A DNA stretch of 64,000 nucleotides from an uncultured Holophagales bacterium (GTDB lineage: Bacteria; Acidobacteriota; Thermoanaerobaculia; Multivoradales; UBA5704), in the NCBI GenBank assembly GCA_963842525.1, contig CAWJGT010000022.1, positions 1 through 64,000 of the forward strand. The letters run 5' to 3'. The notes under the pieces are model-generated. The model saw only the letters and a program-made list of their open reading frames with translations, searched no databases and had not been told where the DNA came from. Made by a program: the position numbers and the translations under genes. This document shows, piece by piece, positions 2,819 through 62,397 of this stretch (position 1 is its first letter; each line of letters begins with the position of its first letter).

Positions 2819-3449
2819 GTCAGTCCACGTCGGCTATCATATATCTCATTCACAATACGCCCCACTATCCGCCGATATTCGAATCCTGCGGGCTTACCGA
2901 CGACCAGGCTGGGCTTCCAGCCTTCTCCAAATTTAACAGCGATAGCTTCCTTAGGCAGGCCGAGTGGCAACTTCACTTGCAGCCGCTCGGCAATACTCTC
3001 CGAGAAGCGCTTCCATGTCTCGTCGAAATTGAAGGGCCTCGGCTGTGGCACAAAGAGAACAGTCCTCGAAGGCTCCTTCGTAGAGTTAATGTGTTCGAAT
3101 TCCCAGAGTAGCCCCGGAGTATCTCCTATCGTTATACACACGACATCACTTCTGGCAGCGAGTTCAATAAAGTGGTTCATCCACTCTCCGGGAGGGACAT
3201 AGTCGCGGTATGCGCCAAGGGGTGGAGCCAATCTGTCGGGTCTCCCAAACGCAACAACAGGGCCAAGTTCTTGTAACCCAGAGCAAACAAGCTCCTCAAA
3301 GGCCCACGGCCGCTTGTTGACCCAGAATTCCGTATTTAGCATATTGTGAGAGGATGGGGAATTCTGACTGCTCTTTCTCGAATCTTCGCGGAAGGATCTA
3401 AGATAGAGAATTGTAGGGCGCTTATCACACTCAACCGCCTGGGTAGCAG
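2776..3449 (-). pseudogene. Cassette gene truncated at its 5' end by IS66 (LYLRSF..D / GPVVA.GRP / G.T.GL.WE family hypothetical)
   Basis: The frame stays open upstream of the track ATG (DKRPTILYLRSFRED) up to the IS end at 3450. GC is low and the gene ends inside the attC. Confidence 0.7.
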
Positions 3450-4435
3450 GTATCTGTTTACCGCCCTAGTGCCGCCTTCCCCGAGCGGTGGCACGTCCGC
3501 AAGGGCTTGAAGTTCTCTTCTCGGCATGGTCTAATGTCTTTCAGGCATGCCGACTTACGAGGAACTCCTTCAAGAGAACTCTGAGCTTCGCCAAGACAAC
3601 GGTGAGCTTCGCCAGCGGGTGGAGGAGCAGGAGCGCCAGATTGCGCACCTGAAGCGCCGAATCGTCGATCTGGAGAAACTTGTCGAGGAGCTACGGCGCC
3701 GGGGCAAACGCCAGGCTGCCCCCTTCTCGAAGGGAGATCCGAGCGAGGATCCCAAGTCTCCAGGGCGCAAAGCCGGGGATCAATATGGTCAGCAAGCGAC
3801 TCGAGCTGTGCCCGATCACGTCGACGAAACCATCGTGGTGGAGTGCCCGCTGTATTGTGAGCACTGTGGGGGTCAGGTCATTCCGCAGGGCGAAGCTCGC
3901 CAGTATCAGACCGATCTGCCGCCGATTCGGCCGGTGACGACGGAGTTCATCCTCCATTATGGGAAGTGCTCGGCATGTGGCCGGGAAGCTGTGGGGCGTC
4001 ACCCGCGCCAGACTTCCCAGGCGTTCCGGGTCGGCAACGTGCAACTCGGTCCAAACGTGTTGGGGCTCGCCGCCTGGCTCAACAAGGTCGGAGGCTTGAG
4101 CTACGGCAAGATCGCCGCGTTGCTGAAGGAGCTGGCTGGACTGTCTGTGTCGCGCTCGGCCCTGTGCCGCGCGCTGCTTCGCATGAGTAAGAAGCTGGAG
4201 CCCTTGTACGAGGAGCTGAAGGCGAAGATCCGGAGCTCTCCTGTGGTGTACCCGGACGAGACGGGCTGGCGGGAGGGGGGCTATAGCGTGTGGTTGTGGG
4301 TGTTCACCAATCGCAGCGAGACGGTCTACAGCATCCAGCCGGGTCGTGGCTATGCCGAGGCCTCTGAGGTCCTGGGGGAGGGCTTTGTCGGCGTGCTGGT
4401 GGCTGATGGTTGGGCTCCCTATCAGAAATTTGAAG
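3450..4435 (+). mobile_element. IS66, 3'-truncated copy (986 bp)
   Basis: Matches 4436-5421; truncated transposase ORF 3547-4455. Confidence 0.9.
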
Positions 4436-6092
4436 GTATCTGTTTACCGCCCTAGTGCCGCCTTCCCCGAGCGGTGGCACGTCCGCAAGGGCTTGAAGTT
4501 CTCTTCTCGGCATGGTCTAATGTCTTTCAGGCATGCCGACTTACGAGGAACTCCTTCAAGAGAACTCTGAGCTTCGCCAAGACAACGGTGAGCTTCGCCA
4601 GCGGGTGGAGGAGCAGGAGCGCCAGATTGCGCACCTGAAGCGCCGAATCGTCGATCTGGAGAAACTTGTCGAGGAGCTACGGCGCCGGGGCAAACGCCAG
4701 GCTGCCCCCTTCTCGAAGGGAGATCCGAGCGAGGATCCCAAGTCTCCAGGGCGCAAAGCCGGGGATCAATATGGTCAGCAAGCGACTCGAGCTGTGCCCG
4801 ATCACGTCGACGAAACCATCGTGGTGGAGTGCCCGCTGTATTGTGAGCACTGTGGGGGTCAGGTCATTCCGCAGGGCGAAGCTCGCCAGTATCAGACCGA
4901 TCTGCCGCCGATTCGGCCGGTGACGACGGAGTTCATCCTCCATTATGGGAAGTGCTCGGCATGTGGCCGGGAAGCTGTGGGGCGTCACCCGCGCCAGACT
5001 TCCCAGGCGTTCCGGGTCGGCAACGTGCAACTCGGTCCAAACGTGTTGGGGCTCGCCGCCTGGCTCAACAAGGTCGGAGGCTTGAGCTACGGCAAGATCG
5101 CCGCGTTGCTGAAGGAGCTGGCTGGACTGTCTGTGTCGCGCTCGGCCCTGTGCCGCGCGCTGCTTCGCATGAGTAAGAAGCTGGAGCCCTTGTACGAGGA
5201 GCTGAAGGCGAAGATCCGGAGCTCTCCTGTGGTGTACCCGGACGAGACGGGCTGGCGGGAGGGGGGCTATAGCGTGTGGTTGTGGGTGTTCACCAATCGC
5301 AGCGAGACGGTCTACAGCATCCAGCCGGGTCGTGGCTATGCCGAGGCCTCTGAGGTCCTGGGGGAGGGCTTTGTCGGCGTGCTGGTGGCTGATGGTTGGG
5401 CTCCCTATCAGAAATTTGAAGAAGCGACTCATCAGACCTGTCTGGCGCATCTGTTGCGCCGTTGCGAGGAGCTGCTGGAGAAGGCGACAGGGGGTGCGGT
5501 GCGCTTTCCTCGGGCGGTGAAAGAGATCCTGCAGGCCGCCTTGGAGGCGCGAGATCAGCGGGACGCGGGCAAGCTCAGCGGCGAGGCGCTGGAGAAGGTC
5601 AAGCAGGACTTGGAGCTCCAGATGGAAAGGCGTCTGTCGGGGCAGTTCACGAACCCCGACAACCAGCGTCTGGCTCAGCATTTGATACGTCACCAGGAGC
5701 AGCTGTTTGTCTTCCTGGAACGCACGGATGTGGAGGCGACCAATTGGCCGGCCGAACAAGGGATTCGCCCGGCGGTCATCAACCGCAAGACATCTGGGGG
5801 AAATCGGACGGCCGAGGGGTCCCAGGCGCAAGCGGTCTTGATGAGTGCCCTGCGCACATTTCAGCAACACCAAGTCGGGACACTCGAGATCTTGCCCCAG
5901 CTTCTGCGCAGCCCCCAGCTACCGAAGCTTGAGGCAATACTTCCTGCGTCACAGCCACCGTAACAGTTCTCGCCACGAGTTATCCGTGGCTCCAGGTCGG
6001 TAGCCGCTCGCCCTCGTCAGGTCGCCTGGCCAGCGCGGACGTGTGTCCAGGGAAAACCTTCCCCAAAAGTGCCGCTGACGGTAAACAGATAC
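4436..6092 (+). mobile_element. Complete single-ORF IS66 (ISBst12-like organisation)
   Basis: Terminal inverted repeats GTATCTGTTTACCG (4436) and CGGTAAACAGATAC (ends 6092); no tnpA/tnpB accessory genes. Confidence 0.9.
4533..5963 (+). CDS. IS66 family transposase (TnpC-like)
   Basis: Leucine zipper, Zn finger CEHC/CSAC, and the motifs DETGW, ADGWAPY, QTCLAHLLR and TNWPAEQGIRPAV. Confidence 0.95.
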   Translation: MPTYEELLQENSELRQDNGELRQRVEEQERQIAHLKRRIVDLEKLVEELRRRGKRQAAPFSKGDPSEDPKSPGRKAGDQYGQQATRAVPDHVDETIVVECPLYCEHCGGQVIPQGEARQYQTDLPPIRPVTTEFILHYGKCSACGREAVGRHPRQTSQAFRVGNVQLGPNVLGLAAWLNKVGGLSYGKIAALLKELAGLSVSRSALCRALLRMSKKLEPLYEELKAKIRSSPVVYPDETGWREGGYSVWLWVFTNRSETVYSIQPGRGYAEASEVLGEGFVGVLVADGWAPYQKFEEATHQTCLAHLLRRCEELLEKATGGAVRFPRAVKEILQAALEARDQRDAGKLSGEALEKVKQDLELQMERRLSGQFTNPDNQRLAQHLIRHQEQLFVFLERTDVEATNWPAEQGIRPAVINRKTSGGNRTAEGSQAQAVLMSALRTFQQHQVGTLEILPQLLRSPQLPKLEAILPASQPP

Positions 6093-16549: not shown

Positions 16550-17060
16550 CGGGCGATTCCGAAGGGCTTCAGAGTCTCCGGGAAGCCTTCCAGAAACTTC
16601 TCCAGGCGTCCAGAAGTTTCCGGAGCGCTTCCGGACGGTTCCGAAGCCTTGAAGAAGAATTCCGGAGGCCTTCAGAGTCTTCCGGAAGCGTTCCCGAAAC
16701 TTTTCCAAGCGTCCAGAAGTTTTCCGGAAGGCTTCCGGACAGTTCCGAAGCCCTGGAGAAGAGCTCAGGAAGGCTTCAGAATCTTTCCGAGGCCCTGGAA
16801 AAATTTTTGGAAGGCTCCAGAAACTTTCCGAAGGCCTTCGGAACTGTCCGGAAGGTCTTCAGAACCGTCCGGAAGCCTTGGAGAACCGTCCGGAAGCCTT
16901 CCTGAACCGTCCGGAAGCCCTGGAAAAAGTTTTGGAGGGCTTCAGAACTTTTCCGAAGGCTTCCAGCACTGTCCGGAAGCCCTGGAGAACCGTCCGGAAG
17001 GTCTTCAGAACTGTCCGGAAGCCCTTCCGAATCGTCCTTGAGCCTTCGAGATCTCCTCCG
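16550..17060. repeat. Degenerate tandem array with 7/21-bp period (TTCCGGAAG-rich)
   Basis: Recurrent CCGGAAG/TTCCGAAG/CAGAA units. Confidence 0.8.
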
Positions 17061-17100
17061 AACGCTTCACCATCGTCCCGAAAAGCAGGAAAAGAACCCG

Positions 17101-18720: not shown

Positions 18721-19155
18721 ATGCGAATCTACATGGACAACTGCTGCTTCAACCGGCCTTTCGACGGCCAGACCCAGGCACGCATTCGGCTTGAGACGGA
18801 GGCGAAGCTGCGCATTCAGGAGCGTATTGCGGCTGGCGAGATCGAGCTCGCTTGGTCCTACATTCTGGACTACGAGAACGCGGCAAACCCCTTTGAGGAG
18901 AGACGGACAGTTGTCAGTTCGTGGAGAAGTCGGTCTGTCGTAGATGTTGCTGAAACCCCTGCGCTGCTGGAATATGCCAAGTCGCTGGTCGTTCAAGGGC
19001 TTCGCAGCAAAGATGCTCTCCACGTTGCCAGCGCAGTCGAAGCTTCTTGCGATTATTTCGTAACTACAGACGACATTGTCTTAAAGAAGCTCGCCAAGGA
19101 ATCGCGCATCATAGTGGTTGATCCGGCTACCTTTGTTAGGAGTACCGAACCATGA
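18721..19155 (+). CDS. PIN-domain toxin
   Basis: MRIYMDNCCFNRPFD...DALHVASA...YFVTTDD. Confidence 0.9.
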   Translation: MRIYMDNCCFNRPFDGQTQARIRLETEAKLRIQERIAAGEIELAWSYILDYENAANPFEERRTVVSSWRSRSVVDVAETPALLEYAKSLVVQGLRSKDALHVASAVEASCDYFVTTDDIVLKKLAKESRIIVVDPATFVRSTEP

Positions 19156-19355
19156 TTACAGACGAAGAACTGAAGGTGCAGGGAGTACGTGTACTGATTG
19201 CGGCGCTTGGGGATGTTCAGGCGGAGAGGTTTGTGAGCTTACTCACACGCGCACCGTTTGACTATACGAAATGGCAGGCAAGTCTTTGGCCGGATGTAGG
19301 AGTAGAAGAATTGAGCCATAAGGCGATGCGGATGCGTACTGATCTGGGTAAATGA
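19152..19355 (+). CDS. Putative antitoxin
   Basis: 67 aa, ATGA overlap with the PIN gene; G.VQAERF...DYTKW motif. Confidence 0.75.
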   Translation: MITDEELKVQGVRVLIAALGDVQAERFVSLLTRAPFDYTKWQASLWPDVGVEELSHKAMRMRTDLGK

Positions 19356-19362
19356 AAGAACC

Positions 19363-19419
19363 GCCGAACCCGGCCGATCGAGCGGACGGCAAAGCCGCCG
19401 CTCATCGGCATCCCCGTTA
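19363..19419 (+). other. attC site (intron inserted after GTTA)
   Basis: GCCGAAC-CCG-GCCGAT[C]GAGCGG[A]CGGC-AAA-GCCG-CCGCTC-ATCGGC-ATCCCC-GTTA. Confidence 0.85.
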
Positions 19420-20232
19420 CTGCGACACGATGTCGCTTTATATATGAAGTTGTTCCCCTCGCAGTCAGAGACGGAACCACCCGTACCACCGGGTGAACCT
19501 AGGGGCCTGAATAAAGAGCGGCTCCGACAATGTACAGAGGCACGCGCAAGCGTGCGGGGCGGGAACCGTGAGGGACCTGCTCTCCTGGCAGCCACAAGCC
19601 GGGCAATGGCTAGGTAGCGGGTAAGGTAAACACATGTGAACCTGTGCAACGACCGTCAAGCGCGAACGAGCTAAAGTGGCTGACAAGCTCGAACCAAAAG
19701 GTATGGGGGCCGGAGGTGGATTTAACGGTGCCACCTCGTGGTCGATAGGGCTCCCCGGTCGACAGCAGGTACCTAACCCCGCGCAGACTTCAGGAGCGGA
19801 ACGTGGTAACCCCGTATCTTCGCCCGCAAGGGCAGGTGAACCGCAAGGGGATCTATTGGAGGTGCGGGCTTGGGAGGTCGGAAGAAGCGAATGCCGTCCT
19901 GTAATGGTGCGGATACGGGTTTCAACGTCACCCGGCACGAAAGTGAGCCCACGTCCGACTGGTGCCTCTTTGCGAGAGCGTATGGAGAACACCTTGAACG
20001 GGGAAGGCAAATAGGAGATGGAGGTGGTTCGGCCACCCGTCTGTGCGCCCCCTCCTCTGGCTGGTCCAGAGCTGGTGCCTGCCATGGTAGTATCGCAAAG
20101 GATGTCCAGTTGTAGGGACAACCGGGTCGGTCACGGATCGGCCTTTGAGGTGCTTGAGCCGTATGCGGGGAAACTCGCACGTACGGTTCTTAGAGGGGCT
20201 GGGGGGCCGTAAGGTCCCCCGGCCTACTCGGC
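19420..20232 (+). ncRNA. ORF-less group II intron (813 nt, probably IIB/CL-like)
   Basis: 5' CTGCGACACG; EBS1 hairpin at 19713-19737; domain V GAGCCGTATGCGGGGAAACTCGCACGTACGGTTC (20156-20189); domain VI with bulged A at 20226; no RT ORF. Confidence 0.9.
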
Positions 20233-20244
20233 GACGACGCAGCA

Positions 20245-20745
20245 ATGTCGCACGAGTTCAAACGACAGTTCGAAACCCTCGCAGCAGGGGATGCCGCCCG
20301 ACTAGAACAGCTCGCTCGTGAGCTTTCGGGCTTCCCTCATGGCACAGACAGCTTCATGCACCGACACTGGATCACAAACGCAATTGATTCTGGGTCGATT
20401 CGGTCGGTGAAGTGGATGCTCGAAAAGGGTGTGGACCTCAACTTTCGGGATGCCGAAGGCTACACGCCGCTTCATAGCGCTCTCGAACAGCCCGAGCGAG
20501 TCCGGTATGGACTGTTGGAACTGTTGCTTGAGGCGGCTGCCCCGATCAACATTAAAGGGGTGAACGACTGGACGCCCGCGCACGCCGCAGCCGCAAGAGA
20601 CGATGTTGAAGCTCTAAAGATTCTCGTGAGGCATGGCGCCGATCTTAATGTACGAACTTCAATCGACGACTACGCGACTCCGCTTGAGGAGGCCAGAAAC
20701 CTTGGCAAGCTTGAAGCCGTCAAGTTTCTCGAAGGCGTCGTCTAA
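20245..20745 (+). CDS. Ankyrin-repeat protein (gene cassette)
   Basis: GYTPLHSA, WTPAHAAA and TPLEEA repeats; the stop lies inside the attC R'' box. Confidence 0.9.
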   Translation: MSHEFKRQFETLAAGDAARLEQLARELSGFPHGTDSFMHRHWITNAIDSGSIRSVKWMLEKGVDLNFRDAEGYTPLHSALEQPERVRYGLLELLLEAAAPINIKGVNDWTPAHAAAARDDVEALKILVRHGADLNVRTSIDDYATPLEEARNLGKLEAVKFLEGVV

Positions 20746-20827: not shown

Positions 20828-21021
20828 GTCGCGCACCGGTGTTGTCGCCCTGGCCAGGAGTTGCTGAGGCTGGCCTGGGGCCTCAGGGTCCAGCCTCAGA
20901 GTTGCTTCCGGACCCCCATGGGCAGCGAAGGTTCGGTGCGACTGCTGCCGGGCCTGCCTCTGTGGCTGCACCACCGACATACCCACTTGCAGGGCTATAC
21001 ACCCACTTGTATACTGGCCCC

Positions 21022-21366
21022 GTGCCTGATAAGATGATCGTCTGGGTTGGGGCCTCCTTCGAGGATCTGCGGGACTTCGCCCCAGAAGCTCGGAGGACTG
21101 CCGGCTACGAACTGCGCCGAATCCGTGGTTTGATGCCGACCGACTGGAAGCCGATGCCGAGCATTGGGCCAGGTGTCAACGAGATTCGAATCCATACGCA
21201 TGTAGAGCATAGGGTGATATATGTGGCGAAGTTTGAAGAGGCGGTCTACGTGCTGCACGCCTTCGAGAAAAGAAGCCGGCGGACTGGCGACGCAGACCTC
21301 TCCCTGGCACGCGAGCGCCTCAAGGAGGTTGAAGCCCTCCGCCGCGAGGAAAGGAGAAGGAAATGA
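21022..21366 (+). CDS. higB: RelE/HigB-like toxin (Gp49 type)
   Basis: W.GASFEDLRDF...DWKPMPSIGPGVNEIRI...YVLHAFEKRS; start uncertain (21022 or 21034). Confidence 0.85.
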   Translation: MPDKMIVWVGASFEDLRDFAPEARRTAGYELRRIRGLMPTDWKPMPSIGPGVNEIRIHTHVEHRVIYVAKFEEAVYVLHAFEKRSRRTGDADLSLARERLKEVEALRREERRRK

Positions 21367-21662
21367 CTAGCCGGGTTCGACACTCAACCGGAAATGTATT
21401 CAGGGATCTCGGATTCGGCGAAGACGAGGCAGAGAACCTCAAGATCCGAGCCGATCTAATGATTGAGCTGACCAAGTTGATTGAGGCCCAGGATCTCACA
21501 CAATCCGTCGCCGCGGAGCTCCTCGGAGTGACTCAGCCGCGGGTCAGCGACCTCATGCGAGGGAAGATCGACCGCTTTAGCGTCGATAGCTTGATTGAGA
21601 TGCTCGGTCATGCAGGCGCTTGCGTGTCGGTTGTGGTCACTCGGCGCAGTCAGGTTGCATAG
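21363..21662 (+). CDS. higA: XRE-HTH antitoxin
   Basis: STGNVFRDLGF...LTQ..AAELLGVTQPRVSDLMRGKIDRFS. Confidence 0.85.
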   Translation: MTSRVRHSTGNVFRDLGFGEDEAENLKIRADLMIELTKLIEAQDLTQSVAAELLGVTQPRVSDLMRGKIDRFSVDSLIEMLGHAGACVSVVVTRRSQVA

Positions 21663-21667
21663 CCGGC

Positions 21668-21725
21668 GGCGAACCCAGCCGATCGAGCGGACGGCAAGCC
21701 GCCGCTCATCGGCATCACGTTCGCG
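21668..21725 (+). other. attC site
   Basis: GGCGAAC...GTTCGCG; near-identical to the attC at 19363; its R'' box is the exact reverse complement of the cassette start GTTCGCC at 20821. Confidence 0.9.
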
Positions 21726-35128: not shown

Positions 35129-35177
35129 GGCAGCTTACATCGATGGGCGTCGATGAAAGCAAGAAGGGTGCCGGGGT

Positions 35178-35443
35178 CCTCACCCCCTGTCCCCCTCTCC
35201 CATCTACCACCCTCCCTTCCCCGGGAGAGGGGGGACGTTGTTGATGCCCCTGTGGCGAGCTCGCGGAATGGCTCCGGATGCGTCCCCCCTCTCCCGGCGG
35301 GGGATGGAAGGGAGATGGGAGAGGGGGACAGGGGGTGAGGACCTACGCCGCGGGCTCGCCACCTGCGCCCCGCCTGCGTCCCCCCTCTCCCGCTCGGGGC
35401 GGGGGGTGGTGGACGCGCGGGGGAGGGGTCGGGGGAGGGGGCC
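35178..35443. repeat. REP-like repeats: an inverted pair plus a third copy
   Basis: CCTCACCCCCTGTCCCCCTCTCCC...GGGAGAGGGGG at 35178-35236, inverted at 35283-35340, third copy at 35379-35443. Confidence 0.85.
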
Positions 35444-37580
35444 TACGCCGACGGCATCCGGCAGGTGTCGCCGCCGGCGGCCGGGAGATAGCACTGCCGG
35501 ACGTAGTCGATCACCATGCGGTCCGCGTTGTAGCGCCAGGCGAGCGTCCGCATCGCCCGCTTGACGCGGCGGATCCAGCCCTGGGGAATGCCCGCCTCGT
35601 CGCGGTGGTAGTAGAGCGGGCACCACCTCGTTCTCCAGCGTCGCGAAGAGCGCCAGCGCGTCGCGCTCGTCCTGCACGTCGGGATTGGCGTGGATCTCGC
35701 CGCGGCCCACGGCGAAGCCGTTGCCGCCGTCGTAGCGCCTCGGCCCACCAGCCGTCGAGGATCGAGCAGTTGAGCACGCCGTTCAGGATGCACTTCTGGC
35801 CGCTCGTGCCGCAGGCCTCCAGCGGCCGGCGCGGCGTGTTGAGCCAGGCGTCGACCCCCTGCACGAGCTGCCGGCCGACGTGCATCGAATAGTTCTCCAC
35901 GAACACCACCCTGCCCGCGAAGCGCGGGTCCTTCTCCAGGTTGGAGACCCGCTGCGCCAGCGCCTTGCCGCCCGTGTCGCGCGGGTGGGCCTTGCCGGCG
36001 AACACGATCTGCAAGGGCCGCTCGGGGTCGTTGACCAGGCGGTCGAGCCGGTCGAGGTCCTGGAACAGGATGTCCGACCGCTTGTAGGTGGCGAAGCGGC
36101 GGGCGAAGCCGAGGGTGAGCGCGTCGGAGCGGAGCGGCTCGCGCTCCGGGGCGGGCAGCCCGAGGCGTGCGCGGCGGTCGGCGAGGCGGCCCCGCACGAA
36201 GGTGAGCAGGCGCGACTTGAGCACCTGATGCACCTCCCAGAGCTCGGCGTCGGCGACCTTCTCCGGTCGCCGTCCACAGGTCGGGCCGGCAGAGCGATTC
36301 GAGCCAGTGCGGGCCCAGAGCGGAGGCCAGCAGGTTGTGCATGTCGGCCGCCAGCCAGGTGCGCACGTGGACGCCGTTGGTGATGTGGCCGATCGGCACC
36401 TCCTCTTCGGTCCGGCTCGGATAGAGGTGGTGCCACATCCGGCGCGACACGCGGCCGTGCAGGGCCGACACGCCGTTGCTGCGCCGGGTGAGGTGGAGCG
36501 CCAGCACCGTCGGGCAGAACGGCGACGCCGGATCGTTCGGGAACTCGGCGCCGAGCGCCACGACCCGGTCGAGGGGCATGCCGAGGCCGGCGGCGAGCGC
36601 CTCCAGGTACCGGCCGGCGAGGTCGGTCTGGAAGCGGTCGTGCCCGGCCTCGACCGGCGTGTGGGTCGTGAACACGCTGGTCGCCGCCACCTCGCGCAGC
36701 GCGTCGTCCGCGGAGAGCCCCTGCTGCTCCACGATCTGGCGCGCCCGCTCGAGCAGGGCGAAGGCGGAGTGCCCTTCGTTCAGATGGAGCACCGAGGGCT
36801 TGATCCCCAACCGGCCGAGAGCGCGGTAGCCGCCGACGCCGAGCAGGACCTCCTGCTGGATGCGCGTCTCCTGGTCGCCGCCGTAGAGGCGCGCCGTCAG
36901 CTCCTGGTCCGTCGGGCGCGTTGGCGTCGTCACGCGCGTCGAGCAGCAGGAGCCGGCTGCGGCCGGCCGCCACGCCCCAGAGGCGGACCCAGACGTTGCG
37001 GCCCGGCAGCTCGACCGCGAAGCGCACCTGCTGCCCGTCCGCGCCAAGCACGGGAGCGGCCGGCAGCTCCGCCCCGGAGATCGGCTCGTAGATGTCCTGC
37101 TGCCAGCCGTTTTCGTCGATGAGCTGGTGGACATAGCCCTCGTTGTAGAGGAGCCCCACCGCCGACCACCGGCACGCCGAGGTCGCTCATGCTCTTCAGG
37201 TGGTCGCCGGCCAGCACGCCCAGGCCGCCGGAATAGATCGGCAGCGACTGGTGCAGGCCGAACTCGGCCGAGAAGTACGCCACCGGGAAGGCGAGCAACG
37301 GGCCGGCATGGGTCGTGCCCCAGTGATCGGCGCCCAGGAGGTATTGCTGGAGCTGCCGGTGCGCCTGGTTGATGCGGGCCTGCATCTCGAGGTCCTGGAC
37401 GCGGCGGGTGATCTCCTCCTCGCTCACGCGCTGCAGGAGGGCGACGGGGTTGTGGTGGACCACGCTCCAGACCTCGGGAGCGATCTCCCGGAAGATGGCG
37501 CGGATCTCGGGCTGCCAGGACCACCAGAGGTTCTGCGCCAGCTCGCGCAGCTTCTGGATGGTGCCGTTGGATTCGGTCAT
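35443..37580 (-). CDS. glgP: Alpha-glucan phosphorylase (several frameshifts)
   Basis: [48 protein letters not shown]. Confidence 0.92.
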
Positions 37581-37706
37581 GAAGTCCTCTCTCCCTCGCT
37601 CCAAGGCGACGCTTCCCCGGGCGGTCCCTGGACGGTTCCGCGCAGCACGCTGCGACCGCTCGGGTGGAAGGACCGACTATAGCGCGAAGGCGGGGGTGTG
37701 CCGAAA

Positions 37707-37760
37707 CCCTCACCCCCGGCCCCTCTCCCATCCGCACTCCCTTCCCCCGGGAAGGGGAGA
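37707..37760 (+). repeat. REP-like repeat
   Basis: CCCTCACCCCCGGCCCCTCTCCC...GGGAAGGGGAG. Confidence 0.8.
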
Positions 37761-41369: not shown

Positions 41370-41450
41370 ATCTCAGTCGGGCTCAGTCACTTCGATCGAA
41401 CCAGCAGGAACCAGGAGCCCGATCGCTGGAGGTGATTATACTTGATCCGG

Positions 41451-41656
41451 ACCTCACCCCCTGTCCCCCTCTCCCATCGCCCCCCCTTCCCCCGGGAGAG
41501 GGGGAACGCAGGCGGAGCTATCTTCGTTCTGTGCAGCCGTCTTTCAACAGAATCTCTGTGGAGCCAGGGCTTCGGCTTCTCCCCTGGAGCCTCCTCAACG
41601 TCCCCCCTCTCCCGGTCGGTGGGGGGGCGATGGGAGAGGGGGACAGGGGGTGAGGT
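41451..41656. repeat. Inverted pair of REP-like repeats
   Basis: Copies at 41451-41506 and 41600-41656. Confidence 0.85.
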
Positions 41657-42285
41657 CACCCTTCCCACCGGATGCCGGTCGGCGGCGAGAACTGCCCCTG
41701 GCGCGGAACGCCTCGGTAGTCCTTGATCTCGAAGCGCGTGAGGTTCCCCTCCCGGTCGTGGTAGGAGACCGCGATCAGGCGCCGGTTTTCGGCGTCGACG
41801 GTCAGCGTGGCGTCCGCCAGCTCGTCGACCTTGCCCTTGGGCGACAGCGCGACCTCGACCCGGCTGCCGTCGAGCGGCTTGCTGATGGCCGTGTAGCGGC
41901 CCTTGAGCTCTTCGACGCCGAGCAGCAGCAGGTCGAGGCCCGGCTCGTTCTTGCGGTCGATCCGGTAGCGCCGGCCGGTCTGGTCCTGCGGGTTCCAGGA
42001 ATGGGCGACGCCGCCGCAGAGCAGGAAGCTCTTGGGGTATGGCTCCTGATAGTCCCACCGCAGGCAGTCTGGCAGGGCCAGGGCCAGGCGGCCGGACTCC
42101 TTCTCGCCCGACGAGAACCCGGCGGGGATGTACGTCTGTGTGAACGTGGCGCCGGTCGGTCCGGCCTCCACCAGGCTCTCGCGAACCCCTGCGAGCACCT
42201 GCCAGGGATCGGAGCCCTGGGCCGAAGCGAAAACAGCCGTCGCCAGAGCGGCGACGGTCAGGATCAGGACGTGCTTTCTCATCAT
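41656..42285 (-). CDS. lolA: Outer-membrane lipoprotein carrier LolA-like
   Basis: ATFTQ...ESGRL...LRWDYQEP...DREGNLTRFE...FSPPTG. Confidence 0.75.
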   Translation of the reverse strand: MMRKHVLILTVAALATAVFASAQGSDPWQVLAGVRESLVEAGPTGATFTQTYIPAGFSSGEKESGRLALALPDCLRWDYQEPYPKSFLLCGGVAHSWNPQDQTGRRYRIDRKNEPGLDLLLLGVEELKGRYTAISKPLDGSRVEVALSPKGKVDELADATLTVDAENRRLIAVSYHDREGNLTRFEIKDYRGVPRQGQFSPPTGIRWEG

Positions 42286-42348
42286 CTCTTCCTCCACATG
42301 CACCTTCCGGCAGGGAAAACACGGGAGGACGGAGGAAGCTTCCCGGGG

Positions 42349-42509
42349 GCCCCTCACCCCCGGCCCCTCTCCCATCCGCCCCCCCTTCCCCCGGGAGAGG
42401 GGAGCAAGGCTCATCCCCATTGCTGATTTCCTGCGTTTTCCTGGTTCCCCCCTCTCCCGGTGGGTTGGGAGTGCGGACGGGAGAGGGGGGTTAGGGGGGT
42501 GAGGGGCCC
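42349..42509. repeat. Inverted pair of REP-like repeats
   Basis: Copies at 42349-42403 and 42446-42509. Confidence 0.85.
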
Positions 42510-44060
42510 TCAGTGCCGGAAGTGCCGCGTTCCCGTGAACAGCATCGCCACCCCCTGCTCGTCCGCCGCCGCGACCACCTCGTCGTCGCGCTTGCTGCCG
42601 CCGGGCTGGACCACCGCGGTGACGCCTGCGCGGGCGAGCACGTCAAGGCCGTCGCGGAACGGGAAGAAGGCGTCCGAGGCGGCGGCCGTGCCGGCGAGCG
42701 GGAGCTGTGCCTTCTCGACCGCCAGGCGGCACGAGTCGACCCGGCTCATCTGGCCCGCGCCGATCCCCACCGTCTGGTCGCCGTTGGCGATCACGATCGC
42801 ATTCGATTTGACATAGCGCTCCACCTTCCAGGCGAGCTCCAGGGCCCGGCGTTCCTCGTCCGTGGGAGAGCGCCGGGTCGGGCAGGTCCAGGCGGACGGA
42901 TCGTCCAGTAGGTCGTCCGGTGGCTGGGCGAGGAAGCCGCCCGCGACCGGCCGCAGCTCGAGGCGTCCCTCGCGAGGACGGTAGAGCGGGCACTCCAACA
43001 GGCGGAGGCTCTTCTTGACCGCAAAGCGCTCCCGCGCCACCGCGTCGAAACCTGGAGCGAGGAGCACCTCCACGAACAGATCGGCCAGCGCTTCGGCGAA
43101 AGCCCCGTCCACCGTCCCGTTCACCGCGATGATCGAGCCAAAGGCCGACACCGGGTCCGTGGCCAGGGCCCGGCGGTAGGCCGCCAGGAGGTCATCCCCG
43201 CGGCCGACGCCGCACGGATTGTTGTGCTTGACGATCACCACCGCCGGCTCGTCGAAGAGAGCCGCCATGCGGCGCGCGGCGTCGGCGTCCAGGAGGTTGT
43301 TCCAGGACAGCTCCTTGCCCTGGAGCTGGCGAAAGCCGCCGAGCACGCCGCCTCCGCCGGACCGGGCATAGACCGCGCCGGCCTGGTGCGGGTTCTCGCC
43401 ATAGCGCAGGTCCATCTCGCGTTCGAGCTGGAGATGGAGAACGAGCGGCATCTCCTCCTCCAGGTCCACGTCCTCCTCATGGGCCAGCCAGACGGCGACC
43501 GCCTCGTCATAGAGCTGCGTATGGCGGAAGGCCTTGACCGCGAGATGCCGGCGCAGCGTCTGGGGGAGAGCGCCGCCGGCGGATTCGAGCATCCGCAGCA
43601 CCTCGCCATAGTCGGCGGGGTCCACCACCACTCCGACGCTGGCGAAGTTCTTGGCCGCGGCGCGGATCATCGCGGGGCCGCCGACGTCGATCATCTCGAT
43701 CGCCTGCGCGAACGAGGCTCCGGTGGCGACCGTCTGCTGGAACGGATAGAGGTTGACCACCACGAGGTCGATGGGGGAGATCCCGTGCTCGGCGAGCTGG
43801 CCGGCGTGAGAGGGGACGGCGCGGTCGGCGAGGATGCCGCCATGGATGCGCGGGTGGAGCGTCTTGACGCGGCCGTCGAGGATCTCGGGGAACCCGGTGA
43901 CGTCCGAGACCGCGGTCGCGGGGATCCCCTTCTCCTGGAGGAAGCGGAGCGTGCCGCCCGTCGAGAGGATCTCGATTCCGAGGCGTCCGAGGCCGCGGGC
44001 CAGCTCCTCCAGGCCGGACTTGTCGAACACGGAGATCAGGGCACGGCGTGCCGGCTGCAT
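42510..44060 (-). CDS. purH: Bifunctional AICAR transformylase/IMP cyclohydrolase
   Basis: [37 protein letters not shown]. Confidence 0.97.
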
Positions 44061-45324: not shown

Positions 45325-45400
45325 GCCCAGGTAGCTCAGTTGGTAGAGCACGTGACTGAAAATCACGGTGTCGGCAGTTCAATTCTGTCCCTGGGCACCA
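45325..45400 (+). tRNA. tRNA-Phe(GAA)
   Basis: GCCCAGG...CTGAAAA...TTCAATT...CCTGGGCACCA, a full 76-nt cloverleaf. Confidence 0.97.
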
Positions 45401-51138: not shown

Positions 51139-51290
51139 GCCCTCACCCCCCTGGCCCCCCTCTCCCAACCGCCCTCCCATCCACCGGGAGAGGGGGGGAA
51201 AGAGATCGAGGAAAAGCCGTCCAACCATCTTTGCTCCCCTCTCCCGGGGGTCGGGGAGGGCGGTTGGGAGAGGGGCCGGGGGTGAGGGGC
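51139..51290. repeat. Inverted pair of REP-like repeats
   Basis: Copies at 51139-51199 and 51235-51290. Confidence 0.85.
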
Positions 51291-51324
51291 TGGGCCGCCA
51301 CGGACTTTGACAGGTCCCAGAGGC

Positions 51325-55135: not shown

Positions 55136-58100
55136 TCAATCGCACTTCTCCGGCCCCGGCAGCGCCTCGCAGGTCTTGCGGTAGGGTTTGTCGGCGCCAA
55201 TATAGTTTCGCCATTCCTCGCAGGTCAGATTCCGATTGGCCGTGCGGCAGGCCTCAGCCATGAGGACACCCAAGTCCAAGTCCCACAGGATGACGGTGTG
55301 GTCCTCACCCGCCGAGGCCAGCCGCTTCCCGTCCGGGCTGAAGGCCACGTCATACACCCCGCCCCCGTGCCCCTCCAGCGTGGCCAGCGGCTTGCGGCTG
55401 TCCACGTCCCACAAGATCACGGTCTTGTCGTAACTCGCCGAGGCCAGCCGCTTGCCGTCCGGGCTGAAGGCGACATCCCAGATCCGGCCCTTGTGCCCCT
55501 CTAGCGTGGCCAGCAGTTTGCGGCTATCCACGTCCCACAGGATCACGGTCCTGTCCCGACTCGCCGAGGTCAGCCGCTTCCCGTCGGGGCTGAAGGCGAC
55601 GCTGTAGACCGATTCCTTGTGTCCTACCAGCGAGGCCAGCGGCTTGCGGCTGTCCACATCCCAAAGGATCACGGTCTTGTCTCGACTCGCCGAGGCCAGC
55701 CGCTTGCCGTCCGGGCTGAAGGCCACGCCATAGACCTCGTCCTTGTGCCCCTTCAGCGAGGCCAGCGACCTGCGGCTGTCCACGTCCCAGAGGATCACGG
55801 TCTTGTCCACACTCGTCGAGGCCAGACATCTCCCGTCCGGGCTGAATTCCACGTCAATGCCCAAACCCTTGTGCCCCTCCAACGTGGCGAGCGGCTTGCG
55901 ACCGGCCACGTCCCACAGGATCACGGTCTTATCCAGACCCGTCGAGGCCAGCCATCGACCATCCGGGCTGAAGGCGACGCCATTGACCAAGTCTTTGTGC
56001 CCTTTAAGTGTGGCCAGCGCCTTGCGGCTGTCCACGTCCCACAGAATCACCGTCTTGTTCAAAGTTGTCGAGGCCAGCCGCTTCCAGTCCGGGCTTAAGG
56101 TGTTGCCGAGAACTTGGTCCTTGTGTCCCAGCAGCACCGCCTTGCGGCTGTCCACGTCCCACAAGATCACGGTGTTGTCCCAACTCGCCGACGCCAGGTG
56201 CTTCCCGTCCGGACTGAAGGCGACGCTGCTGACCAGGTCCGTTTGCCCTTGCAGGGTAGCCAGTGGCTTGCGGCTGTCCACGTCCCACAGAATCACCGTC
56301 TGGTCAGCGCTCGCCGAGGCCAGCCGCTTCCCGTCCCGGCTGAAGGCCACGCTTTCGACTCCACTCTTGTGCCCTTCCAGCAGGCCCAGCGGCTTGCGAC
56401 TGTCCACGTCCCACAAGATCACGGTCTTGTCGTAACTCGCCGAAGCCAGCCGCTTCCCGTCCGGGCTGAAGGCGACGCCCCTGACCAAGGTCTTGTGCGC
56501 CGCCAGCGTAGCCAGCGGCTTGCGGCTGTCCACGTCCCATAGGATTACGGAGCTGTCCTGACTCGCCGAAGCCAGCCGCTTTCCATCCGGGCTGAAGGCC
56601 ACGCCCCAGACCCGGTCCTTGTGCCCCTCCAGCGTGGCCAGCGGCTTGCGGCTGCCCACGTCCCACAGGACCACGGTCTTATCCCAACTCGCCGACGCCA
56701 GCCGCTTCCCGTCCGGACTGAAAGCAACGTCCCTGAGCCGGTCCTTGTGCCTCTCCAGAATGGCCAACGGCTTGCGGCTTTCCACGTCCCACAGGATTAC
56801 GGAGTTGTCCTGACTCGCCGAGGCCAGCCGCTTTCCATCCGGGCTGAAGGCGACGTCCCAGACCACGTCCTTGTGCCCCTTCAGCGTGGCCAGCGGCTTG
56901 CGGCTTTCCACGTCCCATAGGATCAGGGTCTTGTCCTTGCTCGCCGAGGCCAGCCGCTTCCCGTCCGGACTGAAGGCGACGCTGTTGACCCGGTCCGTGT
57001 GCCCCTGCAGAAACGCGGAGAGTTGCGGGTGGCTCATGAAGCGCCGCAGAAGCCCAGACGCCACATCAAGTGTCGGCTCTACTCGAACCGCTTCCAGGTT
57101 GACCAGAAGGGATGCATCATAGCTGCCGTCCTGAAGCCGATCCGCGTTGGCCACCAGCCGCGTGATCTCCGCCTCGCGCAGCAGATCGGCGGCTTTCCAC
57201 GCGAGCCACCCGGCGAGCACGATGAGGACGATTACGACGACCGCTCCTGCCAGCACGAGCGCCGCATTGCGCCGGTTGCGCCGCTGCTGCTCGCGCGCCG
57301 TCCGTTCTCGCGCCTTCACTGCCTCTTCGGCCTCGCGGGCACGGCGGCGGTCGCGGCTTTCCTTGACCACGCGGGTCAGCACGTCGTGGGTCAGCTCGAG
57401 GCGGCGCACGCTCTGCCGCTCGTCCACCCGCAGCAGGCGGCGCCGGATCAGCGCATCGACCGCCTCGGAGGTGACGCCCGGCAGAGTCTCGTCCAAGGCG
57501 TGGCTGTCGCGGTGGCCGCGGCCGGTGATGAGCTCGTCTTCGACAAACGTGCGCACGCTCAGATCAAGGCCAGCCACGCTGCGCTCGTAAAAGCCCGAGA
57601 GGATCTCGCGATCGGCTCCTTCCAGCAGCTCGGTCGTAATGCGCTCGAGCGGAGGTTCCGCTTGCTGGCGCTTGTGATTCAGCTCGCTGCATACCACGCT
57701 GAGCAGTGCCGGATCGATCTCGATCTTGTGGAAATTCGACGGAAAGACGGGGGGGCTGGGCTCGTTCTTCCAAGCGAGCATGAGGATCCGCCGTGCGATG
57801 ACATCGTCGACCAGGTGGCCGCCCGCACGGATGACGACCTCGTAAGCCTGCGCGCCATTCATCGCCAGCAGGCGAAAGCGGTTGTACATGAGGGAGGGCA
57901 TCCGCTCCTTGAGCCCCTCCATCTCGGCCAGGAAATCTTCGCGGAAGCTCAACACTAGCTTGACCGTCGAGCGCTTGAAATCGAAGCGTCTCGCCGCCGT
58001 GGATTCGGCTTCCAGCGCCTTCCGGACCGCGTCCGGCGGCCTGTTCTCCACCAGGTCACACAGCTCGGCCAGGAAGGCGGCCGAACGGGCCCGGGACGCT

Positions 58101-62145: not shown

Positions 62146-62299
62146 GCCCCTCACCCCCGGCCCCTCTCCCATCCGCCCGCCCGCACCACCGGGAGAGGGG
62201 AGCGGAGACCATCGCACCCGCATCTCGTCTCGAGACTTTCTTTTCCCCCTCTCCCGGAGGAAGGGTGGGCGGTTGGGAGAGGGGGTAGGGGTGAGGGGC
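62146..62299. repeat. Inverted pair of REP-like repeats
   Basis: Copies at 62146-62201 and 62244-62299. Confidence 0.85.
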
Positions 62300-62397
62300 C
62301 GAGCTGCCCCCGGTCGCCGGATGCGATAACATGCGTCGACTTCGAAGAGGAGAAGGCGCGTGCTACCATGCAGGAGAGAGGCTGGAAGGGGGCAACC

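Follow-up and report, generated by a model that had tools for sequence, protein, structure and literature searches.

Group II introns are recognized by consensus ends, GUGYG at the 5′ side and AY at the 3′ side (Y, pyrimidine), and an interaction between their first nucleotide (nt 1) and their penultimate nucleotide (n−1), important for the second splicing step, is credited to Chanfreau and Jacquier 1993 in the passages of two papers that deal with it (PMC4238363, PMC3669008). A 64,000-nucleotide stretch of DNA from an uncultured Holophagales bacterium (contig CAWJGT010000022.1, positions 1 to 64,000; hereafter the window) carries at 19420–20232 an intron-like element that departs from both consensus ends, with C in place of the canonical G at nt 1 (19420) and G in place of the canonical A at n−1 (20231). 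Does this locus hold a decaying or misread intron, or one in which the two contacting nucleotides have changed together? We consider it likely, from the comparisons set out below, that the element is an ORF-deleted (ORF, open reading frame) member of a bacterial IIB-type retroelement family in which the G1/A(n−1) combination has been replaced by C1/G(n−1).

The element lies on the forward strand, is 813 nt long and is recognized as an ORF-less intron from Rfam matches, the flanks of its copies and the length of its longest open frame; by all structural features tested, save the two consensus end letters, it is a group II intron. Its domain I core (19477–19610) matches RF02012 (group-II-D1D4-7) with 77 bits against a gathering score of 34, and its domains V and VI match RF00029 at 20154–20232 with 65 bits against a gathering score of 40, the end of the model falling exactly on 20232. 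Domain V (20156–20189), assigned from RF00029 and helix covariation, comprises 34 nt with an AGC triad, a 2-nt bulge and a GAAA loop. Domain VI (20193–20229), placed by the RF00029 alignment, the invariance of its bulged A and the covariation of its basal helix, carries the predicted branch A at 20226. The terminal loop of a domain I hairpin contains exon-binding site 1 (EBS1, UAACGG; 19723–19728), a perfect complement of the last six letters of the 5′ exon, which form intron-binding site 1 (IBS1, CCGUUA; 19414–19419). Because of the 34-nt domain V with its AGC triad and the six-letter EBS1, we assign the intron to the IIB type on sequence grounds. At the 5′ end, the start CUGCG fits the GUGYG consensus at positions 2–5 and departs from it at position 1, and is followed into a conserved hairpin (intron nt 3–17; 19422–19436), a signature common to G1 relatives that provided the motif for the scans described below. 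The 3′ end reads CTACTCGGC, closing in CUCGGC, and thus has GC where AY is the consensus; in its last ten letters (20223–20232), CCTACTCGGC, position 20226 is A, 20231 is G and 20232 is C. The branch A is the seventh letter from the intron end counting itself, six before the end. The initial annotation had read the CTGCG start at 19420, C1, G20231 and a bulged A20226 7 nt from the end, and the sequence bears out each of these readings.

The boundaries can be read from the copies in the same genome. The assembly (9.95 Mb, 34 contigs, 96% complete) contains three full copies of the intron, a 5′ fragment and a 3′ fragment. The full copy on contig 9 is 99.9% identical to that in the window and the one on contig 13 is 87% identical, and the 3′ fragment lies on contig 34. 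The 5′ fragment lies in the window itself, on the minus strand at 2560–2761, and comprises intron nt 1–202 with 100% identity over 202 nt; the repeat identity spans 2560–2766 and 19415–19621 and stops at 2560, and RF02012 also matches the fragment (2704–2571, minus strand). Thus, where both copies had been said to begin with CTGCG, the second start at 2761 is real and the second copy itself is only a fragment. A copy of an IS66-family element interrupts it at 2560: the repeat at 2378–2560 recurs at 3449–3631 and 4435–4617, beside IS66-family transposase genes. The near-identity of three copies (two full copies 99.9% identical, fragment 100%) speaks for recent movement of the intron in this genome.

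Four 5′ ends in the genome become alike exactly at CTGCG, where they are preceded by GTTA, GCTA, GTTA and GTTG, and C is the first letter they have in common. The four 3′ ends are alike through CTCGGC, whose G and C at 20231–20232 are the last common letters, and then diverge, their next letters being G, C, G and G. An intron end at 20235, which had been entertained as a possibility, is excluded because the 3′ flanks of near-identical copies differ from 20233 onward. At the other end, the 5′ fragment shows no difference from the full copy over 202 intron nt, yet has G instead of A at exon position −1; this difference, the EBS1 pairing and the register test described below led us to reject the purine before CTGCG as the true nt 1. 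The unusual termini are not a sequencing slip, since CTGCG…GGC recurs in the two further full copies and, for the 3′ side, the 3′ fragment, as well as in genomes of relatives and in metagenome contigs. In this genome, group II introns of other families have GAC, UAU or UAC at the 3′ end.

The exon and intron partners of these ends also change together in relatives. The loop homologous to EBS1, which in the window is the hairpin loop 19720–19730, varies with the 5′ exon's final letters in introns that start with G (G1) and in introns that start with a pyrimidine (Y1), as in ACGTTA with TAACGT (L109), TAACGA with TCGTTA, and CAGCGA with TCGCTG. Among 63 confirmed introns, a six-letter stretch at intron positions 271–350 that pairs with the six exon letters before nt 1 (score of at least 10 of 12) is present in 24 of 36 Y1 and 15 of 27 G1 introns, and registers in which nt 1 would take part in pairing with the exon come out as uniquely best in no more than two of the 36 and one of the 27, respectively. 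A different EBS1 candidate, UAGCGG at 19615–19620, was rejected, as the surrounding motif is conserved in relatives regardless of the exon. The last intron nucleotide (γ′) pairs with intron position 454 (γ, in J2/3) in 61 of 61 aligned relatives, this position being G with a last C in 54 of 54 rows and A with a last U in seven of seven, with one further row gapped; in the window the pair is C20232–G19873. The J2/3 letter adjoining γ, at 19872 (intron position 453), is G in 24 aligned Y1 introns and A in 21 of 24 G1 introns. We rejected it as a required third covarying partner: G is confined to Y1 introns among well-aligned rows, yet the letter is constant in close G1/Y1 pairs, and its G may have come later, as an accommodation to the altered pair of ends.

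The central question is whether nt 1 and n−1 vary together among relatives. Of 41 genomes searched at the DNA level (G000 and 40 relatives), 12 gave matches, among which starts of CTGCG as well as GTGCG and ends of GGC as well as GAC occur; the C1 copies with a readable 3′ end in related genomes all end in GGC. For a wider sample, the first 18 nt after nt 1 were used as an exact scan motif. A collection of species genomes yielded at least 121 motif matches at at least 118 loci, many of them bacterial introns; the letter before the motif, among the matches listed, is G (89 cases), C (14), T (14) or A (four), some of the non-G cases being chance matches outside introns. Metagenome contigs, scanned only for C or T before the motif, yielded at least 120 stretches. 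Wherever the available sequence extended far enough, the 3′ ends were located with a domain V–VI profile built from the copies found, and the alignment had to cover the ends of the profile; this left 64 usable rows from the 241 matches listed, to which the following counts refer, with 35 from the genome scan and 29 from the metagenomes.

In these 64 relatives, G1 occurs with A(n−1) in 25 of 26 introns, and C1 or U1 occurs with G(n−1) in 37 of 38. The genome scan, in which nt 1 was unrestricted, comprises 25 G1/A, one G1/G, six C1/G and three U1/G rows and no Y1/A row, whereas the metagenome scan comprises 13 C1/G, 15 U1/G and one U1/A; U1 is thus about as common as C1 among the Y1 relatives. 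One of the six C1 rows of the genome scan, L055_1744, had been paired with the domain V of the next copy and should be discounted; in that genome the C1 copy ends in GGC when read directly. A homologue with C1 and a normal AY end, which the initial annotation had named as the telling counter-example, was sought and not encountered among the 19 C1 introns in the matches listed, all of which end in GC. A Fisher test of nt 1 against n−1 in the genome scan gives 5e-7, a descriptive value that ignores relatedness. When every well-filled column within the 5′ 560 nt and 3′ 125 nt (about 685 columns) was scanned for association, n−1 shared 0.76 bit of mutual information with nt 1 and the next best column 0.34; n−1 is by far the best partner of nt 1. 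The proposal that C1 and G(n−1) form a natural compensatory pair is therefore supported by covariation across these relatives and, as described below, by repeated switches.

These observations suggest how the intron would work. It would splice in the usual two steps, A20226 attacking the 5′ splice site to give an A(2′–5′)C lariat; retention of the branch A and of its helix leads us to expect a lariat whose branch carries a pyrimidine. In the second step, the 3′ splice site would be set by γ–γ′ and by the contact between nt 1 and n−1, which would be made by C and G (U and G in relatives), probably as a standard or wobble pair, in place of the canonical G and A. New copies would arise by reverse splicing into sites that have a GC-rich hairpin and then CCGUUR in front of them, with a reverse transcriptase supplied in trans, such as the one that full-length relatives encode.

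Alternatively, Y1 introns might use a changed pathway, for example a mainly hydrolytic first step or circle formation, with G(n−1) serving that pathway rather than a contact with nt 1. A 5′ pyrimidine would make an unusual branch, and hydrolytic splicing in vitro is described for some bacterial IIB-like lineages in the relevant part of PMC3753933. However, the bulged A and the domain VI helix are equally conserved in Y1 and G1 introns, and no other structural difference tracks nt 1. Among 54 distinct sequences, G1 and Y1 alike, the helices of domain V and basal domain VI are 98.4% paired; 15 of the 21 pairs show changes on both sides, a level reached in none of 500 shuffles, and slid registers pair in 31–49% of cells. 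The branch A shows no variation across the aligned relatives (54 of 54). We therefore regard a changed pathway as unlikely.

We consider it quite unlikely, too, that C1 and G(n−1) arose once in an ancestor and were then inherited jointly, with no functional coupling between them. Most C1 rows do fall in one 13-row clade of Acidobacteriota-type genomes and soil contigs, and relatedness inflates both the raw counts and the Fisher tests. To this the tree provides an answer. It was computed from the 5′ 329 nt and the 3′ 88 nt after removal of nt 1 and the final two letters, and comprises 69 rows (63 different), two rows with an apparent length above 3.5 kb having been dropped and seven copies from the genome and its relatives added. 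It implies at least 11 changes between G and Y at nt 1 and nine at n−1. Seven independent pairs on well-supported branches differ at nt 1; n−1 follows in five, is unchanged in two and opposes in none. The Y1/G(n−1) combination occurs in several separate clades beside G1/A(n−1) sisters: L144 (U1…GC) and L053 (G1…AC) are 91% identical over 2355 nt, L171 (C1…GC) and L106 (G1…AC) are 83% identical over 2553 nt, and L242 lies among G1 rows. Moreover, no other column tracks nt 1 comparably. The comparison thus supports repeated switches at nt 1 and n−1 rather than the mark of a single lineage.

Could the copies instead be decaying relics, with C1 and G(n−1) as lesions of a dead ribozyme? The longest open frame in the window intron has 124 codons and a reverse transcriptase ORF is not present; the assembly lacks a close reverse transcriptase of this family, one copy is truncated by an insertion sequence and another is only a 3′ fragment. 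Only intron positions 1 to ~565 and ~700 to 813 match the 2.2-kb relatives, the ORF region (~565–2110 of the full-length form) being replaced by ~135 nt in the 813-nt form; comparison with these relatives identifies this segment as a remnant of domain IV (19985–20118, limits approximate). Yet 2.2-kb relatives whose reverse transcriptase/maturase frames are long and open have these termini too: all ten C1 introns longer than 2 kb keep open frames, as do 13 of 14 U1 introns of that size, with a range of 416–635 codons, the single short frame (353 codons) being that of L144. The frame of L067 encodes RVT_N, RVT_1 and group II maturase (GIIM) domains and no endonuclease domain. Conservation accompanied by compensatory changes is seen in domains V and VI, the branch A, EBS1 and γ–γ′, near-identical copies occupy different sites, and the loss of the ORF is itself no recent event. 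The domain IV remnant is homologous in all seven ORF-less copies of ~810 nt compared (two genomes, four metagenome contigs) and its hairpins show paired changes among them, so that the ORF-less form is one persistent non-autonomous lineage rather than a recent accident. Decay as the source of both end letters is accordingly very unlikely. An internal deletion of a different kind was observed in L017 (genome G010, contig 3), a 1017-nt copy with C1 and a GGC end that consists of the first 93 and last 96 nt of the intron around part of a reverse transcriptase frame, including the YADD-coding stretch.

Least credible, and in our estimate hardly possible, is that the boundaries are misplaced, with the end at 20235 or with the purine before CTGCG as nt 1 and a C inserted in second place: GAC is repeated after the 3′ end and the 5′ exons of nine of the nine closest copies end in a purine, but near-identical copies part from 20233 onward, a fragment identical over 202 nt has G against A at −1, EBS1 pairs with six letters that include that purine and change with it in relatives, and γ–γ′ covaries with the letter at 20232.

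Several observations weigh against replacement of the G1/A(n−1) contact by C1/G(n−1) as we propose it, or limit its reach. The exact 18-nt scan motif samples only introns that share it, and the metagenome rows were all selected for C or T at nt 1. In genome G034, which has three G1 and two C1 copies, all 3′ ends read (two G1, one C1) are GGC, and the contig of L218 combines U1 with A(n−1), the sole Y1/A row among the matches listed. The change is thus not strictly obligatory, as G(n−1) also occurs with G1 in one genome, and the coupling is not absolute. A conservative sign test over the independent pairs gives p = 0.0625, the best value attainable with five of five. Comparison of the flanks of three copies with five congeneric genomes found no usable empty orthologous site, only the hairpin repeat being matched. 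Assembled contigs of four soil RNA libraries (X7, X17, X18 and X19), compared with 19300–20350, include relatives 85–99% alike over most of the intron, one of which matches through 20233 and then diverges; these metatranscriptome contigs, all from relatives, contain no joint at the intron ends and show only presence in RNA libraries. Finally, the 96% complete assembly contains no close reverse transcriptase of the intron family. The best of 16 reverse transcriptase matches is 36–40% identical to the protein of this family, and these 16 are those of different intron families. Reverse transcriptase would then come from a foreign protein or from a helper copy missing from the assembly, or else the copies no longer move; they may thus be at a standstill at present.

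The element itself is of an ordinary kind, a non-autonomous group II intron, and its paired end change is a real, recurrent variant of a known contact. The copies with G1 and G(n−1) in G034 indicate that G at n−1 is tolerated with G1 and may represent an intermediate. The U1–A(n−1) combination of L218 and the G1…CC ends of the intron RmInt1, discussed below, could also form standard pairs, whereas G1–G(n−1) and the canonical G–A could form neither standard nor wobble pairs. A more far-reaching proposal, which we put forward tentatively and which has slightly less than an even chance of being right, is that Y1/G(n−1) is a natural alternative form of the contact and a hitherto unrecognised rule, reached repeatedly from G1/A(n−1) in bacterial IIB-type retroelements with G1/G(n−1) as a viable intermediate and giving A(2′–5′)C or A(2′–5′)U lariats.

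The insertion site has features of its own. The GC-rich hairpin upstream of the window intron (REP-like repeat; 19373–19409), the target context shared 5′ of the insertion site, is a dispersed repeat of this genome and its congeners that occurs with and without introns behind it. The window copy is located 16 nt behind the hairpin, and the contig 13 copy and the fragment copy lie 16 and 15 nt, respectively, behind similar hairpins; empty copies have CGTT and then any letter at their end. The repeat occurs again at 21685–21716, 1.5 kb downstream of the intron, apparently with no insertion. A second intron family (RF02005 type), with a canonical GUGCG start and a GAC end, lies behind the same repeat at three other loci of this genome (L006, L007 and L010) and sits three letters further upstream relative to it than the window intron; from these three loci it follows that two intron families use the same dispersed repeat as a landing site. 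Elsewhere, metagenome loci L173, L282, L231, L245, L170, L199 and L286 have U1 or C1 introns behind purine-rich exon ends (GGAGGG, GGGGG and TCTTAGGRGA). The third looks like the beginning of a domain VI and might be a sign of insertion into another intron.

The window intron can be compared with known introns on several counts. Canonical IIB-type introns of Pseudomonas, Acinetobacter, Streptomyces, Lachnospiraceae and others start with GUGCGACACGARGUCGCUU and end with …GAC, and thus have G1 and A(n−1). They resemble the window intron in the 5′ hairpin, domains V and VI, the position of the EBS1 loop and the spacing of the branch A, and their full-length members share the type of reverse transcriptase/maturase with its full-length relatives; unlike the window copy, which has lost its ORF, they mostly carry one. 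In nuclear introns, the first nucleotide contacts the last, and the AU–AC spliceosomal introns represent a natural paired change of two end nucleotides in contact at the second step; in the present family the contact involves the first and the next-to-last nucleotide instead.

Closer to the window intron in its ends is UHB.I2 from a soda-lake metagenome (CL1/IIB1), reported with 5′-UUGCG..GU-3′ ends and thus a pyrimidine at nt 1 and G(n−1); it lies directly behind a stem-loop (an attC site) and its intron-encoded protein lacks an endonuclease domain (PMC7923331). It differs in having U1 and an ORF, and the likeness is one of reported description; its CL1 label makes CL1 a candidate class for the window intron as well. 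In the part of that paper that describes the intron, the deviation at the end is noted with no tie to the contact between nt 1 and n−1 (PMC7923331). SPAM3, an ORF-less group IIB intron of the mitochondrial rnl gene of Ceratocystis, starts with 5′ UUGCG and ends with 3′ GC; it is fungal and mitochondrial, has U1 and is described in the section concerned as a single oddity, its authors there calling the 3′ GC previously unreported (PMC8208691). RmInt1 of Sinorhizobium meliloti is a mobile bacterial intron with a non-AY 3′ end (CC) for which a predicted contact between nt 1 and the penultimate nucleotide is discussed; it keeps G1, has C at n−1 and belongs to another class (PMC4238363). Group IIC introns such as B.h.I1 insert 3′ of a hairpin motif, as does the window intron (PMC1702495), and have a CGC triad in domain V according to the relevant passage of PMC7923331. 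Membership in group IIC, whose introns have a short IBS1 directly behind a terminator hairpin, is ruled out for the window intron by its AGC triad, 34-nt domain V, six-letter EBS1 and 15–16-nt spacing from the hairpin. In the open-access literature, supplements aside, we found no description of natural covariation between nt 1 and n−1 or of a group II CUGCG start, and prior knowledge of either is possible.

Further features lie around the intron and its fragment. The intron is flanked by likely toxin–antitoxin-type pairs, a weak PIN-domain protein (below the Pfam cut-off) with a 67-amino-acid ORF upstream (18721–19355) and a Gp49-like protein with an HTH_37 protein downstream (20995–21662), the latter pair lying beyond an ankyrin-repeat gene (20245–20745). 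Near the 5′ fragment, two adjoining IS66-family transposase genes, one of them shortened (ORFs 3547–4455 and 4533–5963), share a 300-nt direct repeat (3448–3747 and 4434–4733), and a third start of the same gene abuts the truncated fragment; a Mu-type transposase (rve, Mu-transpos_C) is encoded at 2–1615 on the minus strand. A tandem array at 55148–57079 is made up of ~14 units, each 126 nt long, and a region at 16556–17068 has a repeat with a 21-nt period in which TCCGGAAG-like words are abundant. Dispersed C-rich/G-rich inverted repeats of a second family, with CCCTCACCCCC...GGGGGTGAGGG as their type, make up hairpin pairs at some six places (35173–35452, 37700–37760, 41449–41660, 42347–42512, 51144–51299 and 62146–62308). 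A tRNA gene lies at 45325–45397. On contig 6 of the same genome, an Acido-Lenti-1 RNA match (L290, 2932–2978) lies beside another group II intron.

Few tertiary contacts of group II introns have been attributed to their second splicing step, and the one between G1 and the penultimate A is among these; it forms part of the argument for a mechanism common to these introns and the spliceosome. The repeated natural swap to Y1/G(n−1) provides comparative support for this contact, in ends that two papers of 2021 treated, where they describe them, as isolated oddities (PMC7923331, PMC8208691). Annotation pipelines that seek GUGYG…AY will miss or misplace such introns. If our reading is true, the Y1/G(n−1) form would be the group II counterpart of the AU–AC nuclear introns.

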